A stretch of DNA of 10,391 bases, taken from the UHGV virus genome UHGV-0229635. One strand, written 5' to 3'. Shown piece by piece: positions 2,496 to 9,609 of this stretch. Each line of letters opens with the position of its first letter. Within the stretch, counting starts at the first letter, position 1. The notes under the pieces are model-generated. The model had not been told where the DNA came from. It searched no databases and saw nothing but the letters and a program-made list of their open reading frames with translations. Source of the DNA: a virus. The position numbers and the translations under genes are program-made.

Positions 2496-3172
2496 GCGGC
2501 GTTTTCCTTAATTTGATGATCATTATTGATGCCGTAGTAATCACAAATAGTGGCATCGACGAAAGAGAGATCGTTATCAATCTCATTGGAGTCAAACATT
2601 CCCATTGGGGATTTAACAGTGTCTGCACCGTTGTTTTTTGTGGTGAAAAAGAACTGGTCATCACGGGTAAGGGTGCGAAGAACTATAGTAAACATGCCTT
2701 CGACAGTGATTTTCTCGTCCAGCATTTTGCCGATAGTCTTCATTTTCACACGCCCCATAGGAGTTTCTTCGGTGTGCGCAAGAAAATAGACTCTCAGGTC
2801 ATCAGGCGCATCCTGTGCAGCCTTAATGACCTCCCATGCGTGACGGCCTATCTCAGTGAATTTATCAAACGACTTTTCTTCTGAGCGGCGCATAAACTCA
2901 TTGCTCATCACATACTGGAAGTCATCAACAATAACGATTCTTTTCCCGTATTCGTGAGCACGCTTAATTACGGCAACTATTACGTCCCATTTGTCAGTGG
3001 TAACTACGGTTCCTTTTTTTGCTCTGGCATCCCATGCCAGCCAGTCTTTTGATTTAAATGGAAGCGGCTTGCCTATTGGTTTTATAAGTATTGCTTCCTC
3101 TGGATTGATATTTCTCATGCTGGTTGATTTTCCGGTGCCAGATTCACCGAGTATTAATGTCGCAGTTCCCAT
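2492..3172 (-). CDS. Sak4-like P-loop ATPase (RecA/Rad51-core single-strand annealing protein of phage recombination modules); 226 aa
   Basis: Walker A GESGTGKST near the N-terminus and Walker B-like hhhhDD (RIVIVDD); size and context match Sak4 of HK620-type phages; GAGGTG Shine-Dalgarno before the ATG. Confidence 0.75.
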   Translation of the reverse strand: MGTATLILGESGTGKSTSMRNINPEEAILIKPIGKPLPFKSKDWLAWDARAKKGTVVTTDKWDVIVAVIKRAHEYGKRIVIVDDFQYVMSNEFMRRSEEKSFDKFTEIGRHAWEVIKAAQDAPDDLRVYFLAHTEETPMGRVKMKTIGKMLDEKITVEGMFTIVLRTLTRDDQFFFTTKNNGADTVKSPMGMFDSNEIDNDLSFVDATICDYYGINNDHQIKENAA

Positions 3173-3180
3173 AATTCACC

Positions 3181-3369
3181 TCAGAATGGTAATTCGGATG
3201 GGGAGGAAAGAAATTCGCGCTCATTCATGCGCTCTCTTTGCGCCTGCCATAAACAAAGTTGTTTCTTTGATTTATCTCCCGCTTTACGCCAGTAACGAGC
3301 CTCAGCAATGTGATATTCTCTTTTTAATCGACTTAACTCTGGAGTTTTCGCCAGTTCTACCGGAATCAT
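3181..3369 (-). CDS. 62-aa basic hypothetical protein, sitting where lambda has gam
   Basis: ATG at 3369 is preceded by GGAGG (spacer TCAAA) and overlaps the kil stop (ATGA); the ORF-track start at 3381 is an in-frame upstream ATG with no Shine-Dalgarno. Confidence 0.5.
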   Translation of the reverse strand: MIPVELAKTPELSRLKREYHIAEARYWRKAGDKSKKQLCLWQAQRERMNEREFLSSPSELPF

Positions 3370-3479
3370 TTTGACCTCCATTTTCTGTAGGCTTCTACGG
3401 CCTCACGAAACATCTTTTCATCGCCAATAAAAGTGGCGATAGTGAATTTAGTCTGGATAGCCATAAGTGCTTGATCCAT
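3366..3479 (-). CDS. kil: Kil-like host-killing/cell-division inhibitor peptide (37 aa, MDQALMAIQTKFTIATFIGDEKMF...)
   Basis: Begins inside the 3' end of cIII in a different frame, as lambda kil does; N-terminal sequence matches my recollection of lambda Kil. The ORF-track N-terminal extension to 3569 overlaps cIII and is not credible. Confidence 0.65.
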   Translation of the reverse strand: MDQALMAIQTKFTIATFIGDEKMFREAVEAYRKWRSK

Positions 3480-3618
3480 TTTTTGGGACTCCTGGCTGAT
3501 TAAGTATGTCGATAAGGCGTTTCCATCCGTCACGTAATTTACGGGTGATTCGTTCAAGTAAAGATTCATTTAGTTGGAAGGCACCCATGCGAGCGCCTCC
3601 CGCGATTGCGTAAATCAT
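3448..3618 (-). CDS. cIII: CIII, inhibitor of FtsH-mediated CII degradation (56 aa)
   Basis: Translation MIYAIAGGARMGAFQLNESLLERITRKLRDGWKRLIDILNQPGVPKNGSSTYGYPD is near-identical over residues 15-56 to lambda CIII (..SLLERITRKLRDGWKRLIDILNQPGVPKNGS.TYGYPD); AAGGA Shine-Dalgarno. Below the ORF-track size cut-off. Confidence 0.85.
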   Translation of the reverse strand: MIYAIAGGARMGAFQLNESLLERITRKLRDGWKRLIDILNQPGVPKNGSSTYGYPD

Positions 3619-3642
3619 GGGTGGTTCCTTATGTTGGTTTTA

Positions 3643-4611
3643 TTAGTAGGTTATTTTTGTTGCGAATACTTCGCCTTTTGCGATGGCTATTATGATATTT
3701 TTAGCAACATCTTCTGATGCGCCAACCTTGATAAGGTCAGCAAGTATTTTGTTATTTACTTCTCTCCGGTGAGCTTTATCCTTTGCTCTACGCTCTTCTT
3801 CGTCCTTGATTCTTTTTTCTTCTGCTATTCTGGCTTGCTCTTTTGCTTCAGCCTCGCGCCGGATTCGTTCTGCCTCCTCCTGTGCTTTTCGGCGTTCTGC
3901 TTCAATTGCTGCCTGCTTTTCTCTTTCAGCTCGTTCTGCTGCCTCTTTTGCTTCGCGCTGTGCTCGTTGCTCGGCTTCAATGCGTTCACGCTCTGCACGT
4001 TCCGCTGCGGCCTTAGCTTCTGCTTCTCGCCTTGCTGCTGCTTCAATTTCGGCTTTTGCCTTTGCTTCGGCTTCAGCTCTGGCTTTCTCTTCAGCTTCTC
4101 TTTTTAAGCGTTCTTCATGCTCTCGCTTTTCCTGCTCCGCTTTGAGTCTTGCCTCTTCTCTTTGGCGGTCAAATTCGCGATCCATCAAAATCGCTATTTC
4201 ATGGTCAGACTCAATTTGCTTTGCGAGAGCTTCAGCTGCTGCCTTAGCTTCTTCTTCGGCTTTAATCCGCGCCTGTTCTTCCTCATAATCAGTAAGAGGC
4301 TGGCGTGCCTTGGCTTTCAGCTCATCAAGGCGATCACGCACTGTCTTGCGGTTAGCATCAATTAGCTTTGGAATTTCCTTCAGTTCAGCAACAAGGTCTT
4401 TGCCAAGACCATCGAGATATGTTTTCGTCTGCGCAACTTTATACGCCAGAGAAGCGATCTCCTTTCTTCCCTTTGCCGTTGTGATATCAGGCACAAAGGA
4501 CATAACTTCACGTTCAACCTTTTGAAGGATTTCTTCAATCTGATCGGCAGACTGAAATACAGTCATTGCATTTGCTTTTTCAATAACAACTAAATCTGTT
4601 ACTTCACTCAT
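3643..4611 (-). CDS. 322-aa protein with a globular N-terminus and a long Ala/Glu/Lys/Arg-rich coiled-coil (KfrA/TolA-like low complexity)
   Basis: ORF-track frame; start reassigned to the ATG at 4611 (GGGGGA Shine-Dalgarno), because the track's TTG start at 4665 would place an intrinsic terminator hairpin inside the coding sequence. Confidence 0.7.
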   Translation of the reverse strand: MSEVTDLVVIEKANAMTVFQSADQIEEILQKVEREVMSFVPDITTAKGRKEIASLAYKVAQTKTYLDGLGKDLVAELKEIPKLIDANRKTVRDRLDELKAKARQPLTDYEEEQARIKAEEEAKAAAEALAKQIESDHEIAILMDREFDRQREEARLKAEQEKREHEERLKREAEEKARAEAEAKAKAEIEAAARREAEAKAAAERAERERIEAEQRAQREAKEAAERAEREKQAAIEAERRKAQEEAERIRREAEAKEQARIAEEKRIKDEEERRAKDKAHRREVNNKILADLIKVGASEDVAKNIIIAIAKGEVFATKITY

Positions 4612-4623
4612 ATTTCCCCCGTT

Positions 4624-4650
4624 AAAAAAATCGCCCTCACACTGGAGGGC
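4624..4650 (-). terminator. rho-independent terminator on the minus strand (stem GCCCTC/GAGGGC, loop CAGTGT, then T7 tract)
   Basis: Read directly: plus-strand gccctcacactggagggc preceded by aaaaaaa, giving a hairpin plus U-tract on the leftward transcript. Confidence 0.6.
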
Positions 4651-4754
4651 AAAGAAGATTTCCAATAATCAGAACAAGTCGGCTCCTGTTTAGTTACGAG
4701 CGACATTGCTCCGTGTATTCACTCGTTGGAATGAATGCACAGTGCTTATTTGTA

Positions 4755-6617: not shown

Positions 6618-6926
6618 TTACCTCGCCGTCAGTTGTTTTGATTTCCGATAGCCTGCCACGTAGATGGCTACGTTTGGCAGGCAAATGCTTCCATTGCATT
6701 CGTCGGTATTTTGGTTACGAATGTTGCCGAGTGATATTGCTTTTTCAGAAAGGCTTAAACGCTTTCTCGGTTCTTTCTGAACAGGTTCATCACTGTCTGT
6801 ACCGAAGATCGAATCGATGATGTTGCATATAGCATCACGCTCGATAGCCAGCTTTCTGCGCCGCTCATGACGGCGAGTTTTGGCATTTCCTGTAAATGTT
6901 GATTTCCCGTACACGATTACCGTCAT
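6618..6926 (-). CDS. N: N-type transcription antitermination protein, P22 gene 24 type (102 aa)
   Basis: N-terminal arginine-rich motif GNAKTRRHERRRKLAIERD matches the P22 N boxB-binding peptide; GAGGA Shine-Dalgarno; long 5' leader carrying nutL. Confidence 0.85.
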   Translation of the reverse strand: MTVIVYGKSTFTGNAKTRRHERRRKLAIERDAICNIIDSIFGTDSDEPVQKEPRKRLSLSEKAISLGNIRNQNTDECNGSICLPNVAIYVAGYRKSKQLTAR

Positions 6927-7105
6927 GATGTTTTCCTCATGTAAAATGGCTTTGGTGGTGAGGTAGGTGGGAGACCCATTTCGACCTGTTTCGGCCTACT
7001 TCAATTCGGCAATAGTCCCGCAGGCCTCGCCGCTTTACGTGCGACATATTCCCGTCCATGAACCCTTCACCACACCGCCAAACCCATCTCGTTTGGTATC
7101 TGTTT

Positions 7106-7139
7106 GCGCTTTGTCAGCGCCCCATCGAAGTTAAAGAGC
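7106..7139 (-). promoter_or_regulatory. nutL: nutL: boxA-like GCTCTTTAA (7131..7139) followed on the leftward transcript by boxB GCGCTGACAAAGCGC (7106..7120)
   Basis: boxB is identical to the P22 nutL boxB hairpin as I remember it; boxA matches the CGCTCTTTA consensus at 8 of 9; sits about 180 nt upstream of N on its leader. Confidence 0.75.
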
Positions 7140-7186
7140 CCGCCAATCTGTTCCGTTTGGCTTCCAACGTCCTGCTGATGGCGATA

Positions 7187-7215
7187 ATAATGAACCAGTA
7201 GTTCGATATTATCAA
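7187..7215 (-). promoter_or_regulatory. candidate pL early leftward promoter (-35 TTGATA at 7215..7210, 17-nt spacer, -10 CATTAT at 7192..7187)
   Basis: Sigma70-like hexamers about 45 nt upstream of nutL boxA on the minus strand; overlapped by a 10-bp imperfect inverted repeat (7195..7204 / 7216..7225). No experimental support. Confidence 0.4.
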
Positions 7216-7493
7216 GAACTATTGGTACGAATCGTTTATGATTTATTAACTCTACGAAATATGATTTTGATATATAAGGAAATTTATTTTTGTAAATGTT
7301 GCGGATGAAGGTTATGCGGCAGGGATCAGAATTGCGTGGTTTAGCAAGTTGTATCTATTTATTTTTCAATAAATACAATTGGTTATGTGTTTTTAGATGG
7401 TGGATCGGGAGGCAAAGAAAACTGCTAGGTAGAAAACTGTGGGCACAAAAAAGCTAATGTGGAGTTGTTTGATCTTTTTAGGGGAATAAGAAA

Positions 7494-7517
7494 ACCCGCC
7501 GAAGCGGGTGTTTTTGG
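7494..7517. terminator. bidirectional intrinsic terminator (stem ACCCGC/GCGGGT, loop CGAA, T-tracts on both sides)
   Basis: Read directly: aaaacccgccgaagcgggtgttttt; the stem starts 9 nt after the stop of the 40-aa gene. Confidence 0.65.
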
Positions 7518-7640
7518 TTATGCTGCCATTGGAAGCTTTGATGCTAGCATTTCTGCTTTTCTCTGCTTCATTTCAGCAATAATCTGATTGATTCGATCCG
7601 CACTTTTAAGCATATCTTTGATATGTTCAGTTCTAGACAT
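7518..7640 (-). CDS. 40-aa hypothetical peptide (MSRTEHIKDMLKSADRINQIIAEMKQRKAEMLASKLPMAA), second gene of the cI-proximal cassette
   Basis: ATG preceded by GGAGGA (spacer TAAAC); ends directly at the intrinsic terminator; below the ORF-track size cut-off; predicted helical and amphipathic. Confidence 0.45.
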   Translation of the reverse strand: MSRTEHIKDMLKSADRINQIIAEMKQRKAEMLASKLPMAA

Positions 7641-7663
7641 GTTTATCCTCCGCTCTGTAAGTG

Positions 7664-8026
7664 TCAAAGACCCGATTTAGCACTCTTGAGTAGTTTTGAT
7701 CCCTCAGAGCACAAATCAGGATTCTTTTCTCTTATGTTTTTGATTAAAATCTGTGCAAATATGATGATTTGCTTTAAGTTTAGTTCATTGATTGCATCAG
7801 CTTTTTGGTCAAGTTTCTCTAGCTCTGCATCTAATTCGTCAAGAGATGGGTTTGTTAACTCATGCAACCCTTCAATTCCAAGCTCTTCAAGACTGGTTGT
7901 AACAAATTCAATCAGACCGATTACAGCCTTTTTGACGCTATATATCTGCTTCTCCTCTGCGGAGGCCTCTGCACTTGGAACCAATGCTAAGGTTTTCAGA
8001 TATTCATTCGTTTCATCTTGGGTCAC
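7664..8026 (-). CDS. 120-aa acidic helical hypothetical protein, first gene of the cI-proximal cassette (position of lambda rexAB)
   Basis: ORF track; GTG start with AAGGAG 8 nt upstream; same strand as cI and 166 nt downstream of it; AT-rich relative to cI. Confidence 0.6.
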   Translation of the reverse strand: MTQDETNEYLKTLALVPSAEASAEEKQIYSVKKAVIGLIEFVTTSLEELGIEGLHELTNPSLDELDAELEKLDQKADAINELNLKQIIIFAQILIKNIREKNPDLCSEGSKLLKSAKSGL

Positions 8027-8192
8027 TAACTATACTCCTTATATATGCTCGATCAACCCATTTTGCAACCGCATTTACTGGGATAGAGCTTTTTTTACAA
8101 TAGTCTTATGTGTATATTTACAACGTTGTTTGTGGATAGGGTTATGATTTGTACCTAAAACCTGTCGCATTTTCGTCTCTATGCTATTGGTA

Positions 8193-8900
8193 TTAATAAT
8201 TTCTCAGCCACTCCCTTGCCTCGATGTCATCCAGATGGCGAGATTGCTTCAGAATACCAGCCACATACTCCACCTTTGCTACTTGATGATAAGGCAACGT
8301 TATTGGTCTGTGGTCCTGGTTGATGCTTGTAAATTGGTATTCTCCATCTCTGTCATAGCCAAGAATCTTGATCATGTTGTGTCCTTCGATGGTTCTGACA
8401 AACACCTCATCACCCGGGAATACTTTGGTGTTAGGCTCAATGAGTACATATTCTCCTGATTTTATTCTGGGCCACATGCTGTCTCCTTTCACACGAAGAC
8501 CAAAGGCATCTGGATCATCGCTATAAATCTTGAGCCACCCATCGCGTTCTTCGGTCATCTCGATGGCACCATCAACACCAAGAATTGCCTCACCAACCAC
8601 GCGCACTAACCCTTTTTTTAATTTGCCAACAAATGAAAGAGTATCTTCATCATTCGCTCCATTTAACGAAGTGCCGTGCTGAAGCCAAACAACATCAACG
8701 TTTAGAAATTTCGCAAGCGCATTCATTTTTTCCTGACGCGGTAAAGACTCAGCATTAAACCATTTGCTAACGCCTTTGGACGAAAGAGAAAGGGCACGGG
8801 CTATAGCCATTCCCCTACCATGTTCATCAAGACCAGCTTCTTTACAGGCTTGCGCTAGCCGCTGGGCGAATTCTTTGCGCACTTTTTCATTCTGAACCAT
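8193..8900 (-). CDS. cI: CI-type prophage repressor: N-terminal HTH domain plus C-terminal LexA-like S24 peptidase domain (235 aa)
   Basis: Divergent from cro across an operator region; S24 catalytic motifs GDSM (Ser141) and Lys178 with LexA-like spacing; no Shine-Dalgarno before the ATG, consistent with a leaderless pRM-type transcript. Confidence 0.85.
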   Translation of the reverse strand: MVQNEKVRKEFAQRLAQACKEAGLDEHGRGMAIARALSLSSKGVSKWFNAESLPRQEKMNALAKFLNVDVVWLQHGTSLNGANDEDTLSFVGKLKKGLVRVVGEAILGVDGAIEMTEERDGWLKIYSDDPDAFGLRVKGDSMWPRIKSGEYVLIEPNTKVFPGDEVFVRTIEGHNMIKILGYDRDGEYQFTSINQDHRPITLPYHQVAKVEYVAGILKQSRHLDDIEAREWLRNY

Positions 8901-8978
8901 GAGTACGATACTAAAGCACTTGCAAAAACTTTCAGTTCAATCATAATGCGTACTGAAAGTACGAAAAAGGATATTCCT
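8901..8978. promoter_or_regulatory. OR-type divergent control region (pRM/pR plus operators): candidate pR -35 TTGCAA (8920..8925) and -10 CATAAT (8942..8947); perfect palindrome CGTACTgaaAGTACG (8949..8963); 9-bp inverted repeat ACTTTCAGT/ACTGAAAGT (8928..8936 / 8952..8960)
   Basis: Read directly; position between divergent cI and cro. Confidence 0.7.
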
Positions 8979-9206
8979 ATGCAAAATCTTGATGAGCCGA
9001 TTAAAGGTGTCGGCATACCTGAAGTTGCGAAGGCTTGTGGAGTTAGCGAAAGGGCTGTCTATAAGTGGCTCAAAAACGGCTTCCTCCCTAAGACTGAGTT
9101 TTTTGGGAAAACGAAATACGCCTCAAAAATCGAAGAGATTTCTGGTGGCAAATATCAAGCAAGCGAAATGCTTGAAATAAGTAAAAAGAACCTTCTGGCT
9201 GCATAA
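8979..9206 (+). CDS. cro: Cro-like HTH regulator (75 aa)
   Basis: First gene rightward of the operator region; HTH signature (..VAKACGVSERAVYKWLKNG..); AAGGA Shine-Dalgarno 8 nt before the ATG at 8979. The in-frame ORF-track ATG at 8946 lies inside the candidate pR -10 and is unlikely to be used. Confidence 0.75.
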   Translation: MQNLDEPIKGVGIPEVAKACGVSERAVYKWLKNGFLPKTEFFGKTKYASKIEEISGGKYQASEMLEISKKNLLAA

Positions 9207-9213
9207 GTAACAC

Positions 9214-9248
9214 CGCTCTTTATCAATCTGCACCGCCGACAACGCGGT
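9214..9248 (+). promoter_or_regulatory. nutR: nutR: boxA CGCTCTTTA (9214..9222) and boxB hairpin ACCGCCGACAACGCGGT (9232..9248)
   Basis: boxA matches the consensus exactly; boxB matches the P22 nutR boxB as remembered; located between cro and cII as in lambda and P22. Confidence 0.75.
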
Positions 9249-9260
9249 AACTAATTAAGC

Positions 9261-9278
9261 ACTCATCGAAAGATGAGT
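9261..9278 (+). terminator. tR1-like hairpin (ACTCATC gaaa GATGAGT) followed by T-rich sequence
   Basis: Read directly; lies between nutR and cII where lambdoid phages carry tR1. The U-tract is imperfect, so it may be weak or rho-dependent. Confidence 0.35.
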
Positions 9279-9312
9279 ATTAGTGATTATTTACCTATGG
9301 AAATAGTAAGAA

Positions 9313-9609
9313 ATGGAAAGAACAAGTTACAGCAAACTATCACAGCGTGACGTTGATCGCGCAGAAACAGATTTACTTATCAATCTGTCAGCTATTACCC
9401 AGCGCGGTCTGGCAAAGATGATTGGCTGTCATGAATCGAAGATAAGCAGAACGGACTGGCGGTTTATTGCTTCGGTCCTGTGTGCTTTCGGAATGGCATC
9501 AGACATCAGTCCGATTAGCAGGGCTTTTAAGTATGCGCTTGATGAAATCATCAATAAAAAACGCCCGGCGGCAACCGAGCGTTCTGAACAAATCCAGATG
9601 GAATTCTGA
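9313..9609 (+). CDS. cII: CII transcriptional activator (98 aa); C-terminal 20 residues identical to lambda CII
   Basis: C-terminus ..NKKRPAATERSEQIQMEF is identical to lambda CII; the N-terminal two-thirds is divergent; located between nutR/tR1 and O. Confidence 0.85.
   Translation: MERTSYSKLSQRDVDRAETDLLINLSAITQRGLAKMIGCHESKISRTDWRFIASVLCAFGMASDISPISRAFKYALDEIINKKRPAATERSEQIQMEF

Follow-up and report, generated by a model that had tools for sequence, protein, structure and literature searches.

The DNA analysed here (the window) is a stretch of 10,391 nucleotides (nt) from the virus genome UHGV-0229635 that spans the immunity and early-left region of a lambdoid prophage, with the leftward genes on the minus strand. 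Directly behind the repressor gene cI, it carries a mosaic cassette of 775 bp (7423..8197, minus strand) that is exchanged between conserved flanks and encodes two small proteins, OrfA and OrfB, of 120 and 40 amino acids (aa). This cassette is a real, mobile and self-contained accessory unit, or 'moron', in a known defence hotspot, and orfA and orfB are real, linked genes that diverge together. Nothing in the system is more strongly conserved than the C-terminal tail of OrfB. This Lys-Ala-Ala-type end, which went unnoticed in an earlier note on the same DNA, is also the most informative feature, and it is one of the reasons why the pair is tentatively read here as a proteolysis-gated, toxin-antitoxin-like exclusion module with a ClpXP-labile peptide.

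The limits of the cassette were given by blastn comparison of the window with two phages that share its cI, cro, cII and N, namely an Escherichia coli prophage from IMG/VR (L040) and phage BP-4795 (L057). In both comparisons, homology ends exactly at 8198, five bases inside the 3' end of cI, and returns exactly at 7422, and the flanks are 92-98% identical to the window where they align. The cargo between these two points differs: the slot of L040 holds a 702-bp unit that encodes a 28%-identical allele of the same pair, and that of BP-4795 and H-19B holds about 1.5 kb without relation to orfA and orfB. Identical junctions against two same-cI phages with other cargo bear out the suggestion of the earlier note that the block was acquired horizontally, and the cassette shows deep allelic diversity within identical phage backbones.

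The same note had described a two-gene cassette with its own terminator in the position of lambda rexA-rexB. In L040, the equivalent of the right flank aligns with lambda 35739..35828, which covers the rexB end and the bases that follow it; the right junction at 7422 abuts this post-rexB-like DNA, and therefore the assignment to the rexAB slot is valid at the sequence level. In the window, this backbone flank 3' of the cassette (7300..7422, minus strand) is lambda-like DNA from just after rexB toward oL/pL, and it matches hundreds of E. coli genomes at 82-94%. That the slot is a known hotspot agrees with the published record, in which the region between cI and N is a site of mosaic diversity, occupied by rexAB in lambda and by bstA in BTP1 (Owen et al., PMC8585504).

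The base composition of the cassette was compared with that of cI, N and the whole window. At 0.386 (0.349 in the gap, 0.388 in orfA and 0.366 in orfB), its GC content is lower than that of cI (0.451), N (0.460) and the window (0.432), and at third codon positions the two cassette genes have 0.355 and 0.293 vs 0.415 and 0.466 for cI and N. The AT-richness pointed out earlier is real, but modest. Sharp junctions in near-identical backbones, a terminator of its own and a differing base composition are among the marks of an autonomous moron, and the cassette bears these three. Its exact form occurs in four of 5426 complete E. coli genomes, in which PGAP labels both genes hypothetical.

The alternative L040 allele (3968..4519) consists of a 126-aa protein and a 33-aa peptide ending in HTKKAA, behind a cI that is 98% identical to that of the window. 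It was found in 32 of the 5426 genomes, and RefSeq annotates its larger gene only, the peptide gene being missed. The peptide gene is often unannotated, and therefore prophage annotations systematically miss half of the system. In E. coli 214-4 (L001 10271..12696), an IS66-family element, ISEc43, lies between the cassette terminator and N, where oL/pL and nutL are expected; this prophage is therefore probably crippled for lytic growth, with the cassette intact. The unrelated block of BP-4795 (2745..4086) holds three unrelated hypothetical genes, ORF22 (95 aa), ORF21 (218 aa) and ORF20 (134 aa), and no gene is annotated in the matching interval of the H-19B record (L058). This block may be another uncharacterised cargo set.

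The two genes and their signals were found where the earlier note had placed them. orfA (7664..8026, minus strand) starts with GTG 8 nt after the Shine-Dalgarno (SD) sequence AAGGAG (8035..8040, minus strand) and encodes a 120-aa acidic protein with an isoelectric point of 4.60 and 22 Asp or Glu vs 13 Lys or Arg residues, all-helical in its AlphaFold2 (AF2) model. orfB (7518..7640, minus strand) starts with ATG 5 nt after the SD GGAGGA (7646..7651, minus strand), of the GGAG type also seen in other alleles, and encodes a 40-aa basic peptide (isoelectric point 9.82) predicted to form an amphipathic helix and ending in LPMAA. Its longest form would be a 49-aa open reading frame (ORF) with a TTG start (7518..7667); all orthologues support the 40-aa ATG form. 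The block closes with an intrinsic terminator (7484..7517, minus strand), composed of an A-run, a stem-loop at 7494..7509 with a 6-bp stem (5 GC) and a 4-nt loop, and a T-rich tail that reads TTTCTTATTC on the gene strand. RNAfold gives it -11.0 kcal/mol, and it scored on both strands, in keeping with the bidirectional function assigned to it before. A hairpin and T-run follow orfB in 19 of 19 distinct alleles.

Both ORFs are short and outside curated families, and the peptide is unannotated in many records, features that would suit non-functional chance ORFs, one or both, in an AT-rich spacer. The pattern of substitution excludes this. Across the cassette, the DNA of the window and that of its Serratia orthologue are about 69% identical, and within orfA, codon positions 1/2/3 account for 17/12/87 of the differences; 73 of the changed codons are synonymous and 21 non-synonymous. 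For orfB the figures are 13/12/22, a trend as in orfA. Together with the co-divergence of the two proteins and with the retention of length, frame, SD and tail across 49 distinct peptides and over 30 clusters of OrfA, spread over a dozen genera, this third-position bias leaves the chance origin barely credible. The antisense ORF of 174 aa (7623..8147, plus strand) was rejected as spurious because the differences follow the codon positions of orfA, the frame that the substitution pattern fits.

Linkage of the two genes was followed through five distinct genome or phage contexts, 47 IMG/VR loci in about 13 distinct groups, and distant relatives (<=30% identity). Every locus with enough sequence has an ORF of 30-42 aa that starts 12-70 nt after orfA, with its own SD, and is followed by a GC hairpin and a T-run. 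No informative locus lacks either gene, over a range of identity from 99% to about 28%, which settles in the affirmative the question of whether the two genes travel together. Furthermore, the divergences of OrfA and OrfB correlate (Mantel r=0.85), a value reached by 0 of 2000 permutations. The organisms named for the matches to OrfA and to the peptide are all Enterobacterales, from the genera Serratia, Pectobacterium, Edwardsiella, Pantoea, Photorhabdus, Raoultella, Salmonella, Klebsiella, Hafnia, Citrobacter, Enterobacter, Morganella, Providencia, Kosakonia, Rosenbergiella and Xenorhabdus.

The position of the pair is nearly as constant as its linkage. In all 12 distinct IMG/VR representatives, and likewise at four genome loci, the next gene upstream on the same strand encodes a cI-like repressor, and Peptidase_S24 was matched in all 10 of the IMG/VR repressors scanned with Pfam. 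These repressors, with a helix-turn-helix (HTH) and an S24 domain, are very diverse, with eight or more unrelated types of sequence, and outside the cassette the loci have no DNA homology in common. Three exceptions were found: a Pantoea copy lies at the edge of a prophage without an adjoining repressor, its neighbours being a tRNA-like sequence and a umuC-like gene; one distant relative adjoins tail genes; and a frameshifted peptide gene (L066) adjoins type I restriction-modification genes.

Near-exclusive synteny with HTH and Peptidase_S24 repressors of so many types, without homology of the flanking DNA, would be compatible with an accessory regulator of the lysogeny switch, one that acts on the circuit of the S24 repressor, for instance by adjusting the induction threshold through RecA-dependent cleavage, by removal of repressor fragments after cleavage, or through Cro or CII, and that does not act against other phages. 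In the same direction, ClpXP is reported to clear those fragments of cleaved LexA in which a C-terminal VAA becomes exposed (Neher et al. 2003). However, BP-4795 and H-19B, with the same cI, cro and cII, work without the pair, which therefore cannot be a core component of the switch. Nor do the Pantoea copy, with no repressor beside it, and the distant relative next to tail genes fit such a role, and the defence genes rexAB and bstA show the same synteny. A regulator of this kind is judged unlikely.

The tail of OrfB was compared among the 49 distinct homologues. Ala-Ala forms the end of 43 of them, and Lys stands at position -3 in 43; the remaining peptides, one frameshifted copy excepted, end in VA, SA, AV or VV. 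Arg or Lys occupies position -4 in 28 of the 49, and positions -5 and -6 are freely variable. Among the most distant alleles, the ends are KKAA, KRAA, RKAA, KKVA or KKSA. All four Ala codons, in many combinations, encode the terminal alanines, and thus selection acts on the protein. The allele of the window alone has Met in place of Lys at -3; its Met-Ala-Ala codons (7521..7529, minus strand) end a Pro-Met-Ala-Ala sequence, an ssrA-like tail of the nonpolar-Ala-Ala type and a candidate ClpX-type degron.

A free C-terminus with Ala-Ala, or with a small aliphatic residue and Ala, after nonpolar or basic residues is what defines a ClpX C-motif, and the OrfB tails have this composition. In a screen of random C-terminal tags in E. 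coli, the strong degrons were ClpXP-dependent and Ala-Ala was present in 91% of the top 100 tags, with tags shorter than five suitable residues being weak as degrons (PMC10862746). The second class of C-terminal ClpX signals is the basic MuA tail RRKKAI, or C-motif 2 (PMC12723719). The OrfB tails [KR][KR]-A-A and K-K-V-A, and P-M-A-A in the window, are like these signals (ssrA, ending in LAA, and MuA, ending in RRKKAI), whereas the commonest tail, x-K-A-A, looks like a hybrid of both classes; this is a resemblance only, read from sequence. Degron activity of the tail is predicted from it.

The body of the peptide is predicted to be a strongly amphipathic helix. Its hydrophobic moment is 1.41 vs 0.57+/-0.29 for shuffled sequences, and no transmembrane segment was found (maximum 19-residue Kyte-Doolittle mean -0.07). 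Ile, Leu and Met residues recur with an a/d-type spacing, as would fit a helix that packs onto a helical bundle. OrfB alone, used as a single query sequence, found only itself, and relatives were retrieved by an alignment-based search. An arbitrium-like signalling peptide was considered and rejected, OrfB being hydrophilic and without a signal sequence.

Another reading is a stable complex that serves some other lysogenic conversion (host physiology, stress or virulence), in which the tail would be a binding or structural motif rather than a signal for degradation and the two proteins possibly a pair of small helical regulators of the Hha/TomB kind. The match to TomB/YmoB-Hha is one of generic fold, however: OrfB is half the size of the small partner of that system, and what it conserves is the tail. 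No Pfam match to TomB/YmoB was obtained at E<=1, and a profile search of PDB sequences at E<=10 was without YmoB. Such a conversion role is held to be quite improbable.

The conservation of the tail and its match to ClpX C-terminal signals are also what a protease decoy or modulator would show. OrfB would then be a competitive substrate or inhibitor of ClpXP, with OrfA buffering, storing or delivering the peptide. The aim would be to alter the stability of O-type replication proteins, host antitoxins or repressor fragments to the benefit of the prophage. Lambda CIII is both a substrate and an inhibitor of FtsH, and a putative CIII homologue lies in the window (3448..3618). Furthermore, lambda RexB, from the same slot, is reported to prevent degradation of the MazE antitoxin (PMC4255059, citing Engelberg-Kulka 1998). 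Neither RexB nor CIII is related to the pair in sequence or fold, however, and the flux of ssrA-tagged proteins through ClpXP is large, so that a peptide from a single-copy prophage may not compete. A decoy also leaves the strictly conserved, co-diverging 120-aa partner unexplained, and we think it a rather unlikely function for the pair.

As to that partner, its AF2 model, built on a 19-sequence alignment, has five predicted helices with a four-helix-bundle-like core (pLDDT 72.8, pTM 0.54). The OrfA family is small: a search of 5.8 billion clustered proteins gave 21 matches, and one of 1.84 billion representatives gave 30 clusters (E<=1e-3), none of them named and none with a Pfam domain. Across this wide family, only G50, P60 and S61 are invariant, Q86 is nearly so, and the motif [ND]PS[LI][DE][DE]L is shared.

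The earlier note recognised neither protein, and the searches made here likewise assign no function. For OrfA and OrfB, Pfam gave no match save a sub-threshold one to UPF0184, NCBIfam gave none, and PHROGs gave only phrog_16322, of unknown function, over a partial stretch (E 1.7e-6). The profile search of PDB sequences yielded noise only (E about 0.1, an influenza HA2 helical hairpin), and Foldseek of the OrfA model against PDB and BFVD produced no match at E<=0.001. A DNA-mimic anti-restriction protein of the Ocr type was judged unlikely, the net charge of OrfA being only about -9.

The signals in front of orfA were studied in an alignment of 14 core alleles, with L037 and L038 as Morganellaceae-type alleles beside the core set. 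The earlier note had listed a possible promoter with the hexamers TTGCAA and TATATA and had doubted it because the latter overlaps the SD. The coordinates of this candidate promoter, P1, and the overlap both hold: its -35-like hexamer lies at 8063..8068 and its -10-like hexamer at 8040..8045 (both minus strand), with a 17-nt spacer, the last base of the latter being the first base of the SD. The element was nevertheless underrated. TTGNAA precedes the start codon by exactly 42 nt in 13 of the 14 core alleles and is off by 1 nt in the other, and [TC]ATATA is present in 13 of 14. The 42 nt 5' of the orfA start are kept far beyond the surrounding non-coding DNA, in the pattern TTGNAA, 17 nt, [TC]ATATA, AGGAGTAT[AG][AG]T[TA]A and then GTG, and the DNA further upstream of the -35-like hexamer is not conserved. 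The divergent L037 and L038 alleles retain TTGATA-17-TATATA despite a different SD region, which favours the promoter reading. A promoter scan of the single sequence was at chance (5 promoter-like sites vs 4.7 expected), and the predicted P1 start site, near 8033, would fall after the SD of orfA. P1 is thus promoter-like by its conservation.

The promoter scan also gave an alternative promoter-like pair, P2 (8029..8056, minus strand), composed of TTGATC (8051..8056), 16 nt and TATAGT (8029..8034). No core allele departs from its TAT[AG][AG]T, and about 9 of the 14 also have a -35 of the TTGAT kind. P2 would initiate just inside orfA, near 8022, hence expressing orfB alone, an arrangement resembling that of lambda, where pLit is an internal promoter serving rexB.

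The SD of orfA lies within a 19-nt near-invariant block, TATATAAGGAGTATAGTTA (8027..8045), immediately 5' of the GTG, and this block is kept even though the coding DNA is only about 69% identical. Such conservation exceeds the need of an SD alone, and the block could host overlapping promoters, a translational operator, or both. The start codon of orfA is a non-ATG codon (GTG or TTG) in nearly all core alleles, which suggests restrained translation of OrfA relative to OrfB. In Serratia prophages (L003 3726..4000; L007 and L008 3607..4000), different immunity types share about 200 nt of conserved non-coding sequence 5' of the cassette promoter, and in L007 and L008 the gene of a 34-aa small protein of the YoaK family stands between the repressor and the cassette.

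The reading favoured here, with considerable reserve, is that of a toxin-antitoxin-like exclusion module gated by proteolysis, because it makes use of all the facts: mobility, placement on the lysogen side, co-divergence, the ClpX-like tail and allelic diversity. Inserted between cI and oL/pL, the cassette would be expressed in the lysogen, by read-through from pRM, from a promoter of its own, or both. OrfA and OrfB would act as a pair, with the basic amphipathic helix of OrfB probably packed against OrfA. If the [K/M]-Ala-Ala-COOH tail is a ClpX-type degron, OrfB would be continuously made and continuously destroyed, and it would either restrain OrfA or be presented by OrfA. In that case, normal host expression and proteolysis would be read out from the OrfB:OrfA ratio, as with a labile antitoxin. 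A superinfecting phage that stops host expression or perturbs ClpXP would shift this ratio, and free OrfA could block a target of host or phage origin. Exclusion or abortive infection would result, with toxicity and an anti-phage phenotype as the expected properties.

OrfA, in turn, has no catalytic signature, and therefore it probably acts by binding. An exclusion, defence or toxin-antitoxin function, as suggested in the earlier note, is a plausible possibility.

Several observations weigh against the proposed module. Terminal Ala-Ala is necessary, and not sufficient, for degradation by ClpXP, and the part of the C-terminal-tag screen available to us documents no influence of a Lys at -3 (PMC10862746). 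On the side of OrfA, no enzymatic motif or known toxin fold was found, no transmembrane segment was detected (maximum 19-residue Kyte-Doolittle value 1.17, below the threshold of about 1.6), and its invariant residues look like a turn and a helix cap rather than an active site. PADLOC-DB v2 gave no significant match to a defence model, the best being AbiEi over a partial stretch (14.8 bits, E 0.0041). The order of the genes, with the large one first, and the absence of a DNA-binding domain are atypical for a type II toxin-antitoxin system. In addition, the pair is near-exclusive to the slot downstream of cI in Enterobacterales and is not scattered in defence islands, which could point to a role in the lysis-lysogeny switch. 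Finally, in the IMG/VR locus L055 (3968..4252), a nonsense mutation cuts the OrfA homologue to 94 aa, and the 1.1 kb around it has 99.9% identity to the sibling copies; this naturally orfA-null copy shows only that orfA is dispensable.

More broadly, the pair might represent a new class of prophage switch, in which a ClpX-tagged mini-protein of 30-42 aa with a [KR][KR]AA end provides timing or sensing for a helical-bundle effector, or in which the peptide is a dedicated ClpXP decoy; this is possible, though on the doubtful side. A ClpXP-timed partner would be a minimal natural, phage-borne example of degron-gated control. Either as timer or as decoy, the peptide would wire AAA+ proteolysis into the lambdoid immunity region across Enterobacterales. 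It would also be a mechanistic parallel to the puzzling anti-proteolysis of lambda RexB and could illuminate the effect of RexB on protease substrates.

Comparison with known systems shows in what respects the cassette is familiar. With lambda rexA-rexB it shares the slot between the cI stop and the DNA just past rexB, two genes co-directional with cI, a terminator before pL and a candidate internal promoter, P2, that would favour the second gene as pLit does in lambda. RexB likewise has a reported link to the protease-dependent stability of other proteins. By contrast, RexA has 279 aa and RexB is a membrane protein of 144 aa, whereas OrfA and OrfB (120 and 40 aa) are predicted to be soluble and helical, with no transmembrane segment, and no homology to RexA or RexB appeared in the Pfam, PHROG, NCBIfam or PADLOC scans.

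BstA, by comparison, is one protein of about 300 aa that has a KilA-N-type domain and is accompanied by a DNA-based self-immunity element; neither feature was seen in the cassette, which was scanned with Pfam and PADLOC. Like the pair, BstA is syntenic directly after diverse repressors of Gram-negative prophages, is expressed in the lysogen and has its own Rho-independent terminator (PMC8585504). Type II toxin-antitoxin and abortive-infection pairs such as RnlAB and MazEF resemble the cassette in having two small adjacent genes, strict co-inheritance and a partner with degradation-signal-like features. Unlike them, the cassette has no recognisable toxin or antitoxin domain, its small partner of 30-42 aa has no DNA-binding fold, and its large gene comes first. 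Lambda CIII (54 aa) is, like OrfB, a tiny phage amphipathic helix that would engage an AAA+ protease; however, its sequence is unrelated, the predicted protease is different, and it is expressed from pL, while OrfB is placed on the lysogen side with an obligatory 120-aa partner.

The kind of element is thus known, that of an accessory cassette in the cI-N hotspot, possibly toxin-antitoxin-like; what is new is the undescribed protein families and the degron-like tail on a mini-protein partner. The cI-to-N slot is transcribed in every lysogen and has already given RexAB and BstA. With this record, a compact and widespread third occupant is a good candidate for a new mechanism of exclusion or proteostasis, and the pair is also present in E. 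coli prophages with the cI type of Shiga toxin (Stx)-converting phages.

The neighbouring genes of the window are those of a lambdoid immunity region. The upstream neighbour of the cassette is the cI repressor gene (8193..8900, minus strand; HTH_3 and Peptidase_S24, E 4.2e-16), which at its 3' end shares 99% identity with cI of H-19B, of BP-4795 and of many Stx-converting phages. cro lies at 8946..9206, cII at 9313..9609 (Phage_CII, E 9.6e-32) and N at 6618..6926 (N_peptide, E 2.8e-38). An Rfam scan of 6900..9300 gave no RNA family, its three matches all being far under the gathering scores.

Two unusual relatives of the peptide gene were also noted. In L066 (1..3100), a short metagenomic contig in which mis-assembly is possible, a frameshifted peptide gene stands directly after the type I restriction-modification genes hsdM and hsdS, without orfA. 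The frame after the A-run still reads YNKAA at its end, and the following gene begins, by eye, with sequence like that of a JAB-type tail gene. In L067 (138..275), a 45-aa variant has the altered tail SQKQGRAV, and orfA would fall beyond the contig end. Its neighbours are genes for the small subunit of ribonucleotide reductase, split by an HNH endonuclease gene, and a glutaredoxin gene, a context that looks like that of a virulent phage rather than a lambdoid prophage.

Within the window itself, the putative CIII homologue (3448..3618, minus strand) is a 56-aa ORF with the CIII-like motif ESLLERITRKLRDGWKRLIDILNQPGVPKNG, recognised by eye only, and it would be a second small protease-directed peptide of the same phage. 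The allele-specific 120 nt that separate cI from the cassette promoter contain a 31-aa ORF (8075..8170, minus strand; MRQVLGTNHNPIHKQRCKYTHKTIVKKALSQ). Lastly, a 340-aa ORF (3643..4665, minus strand) has a long low-complexity centre rich in Glu, Ala, Lys and Arg, with a strong AT skew at 3700..4200, and it is kept at 98.6% in L040.

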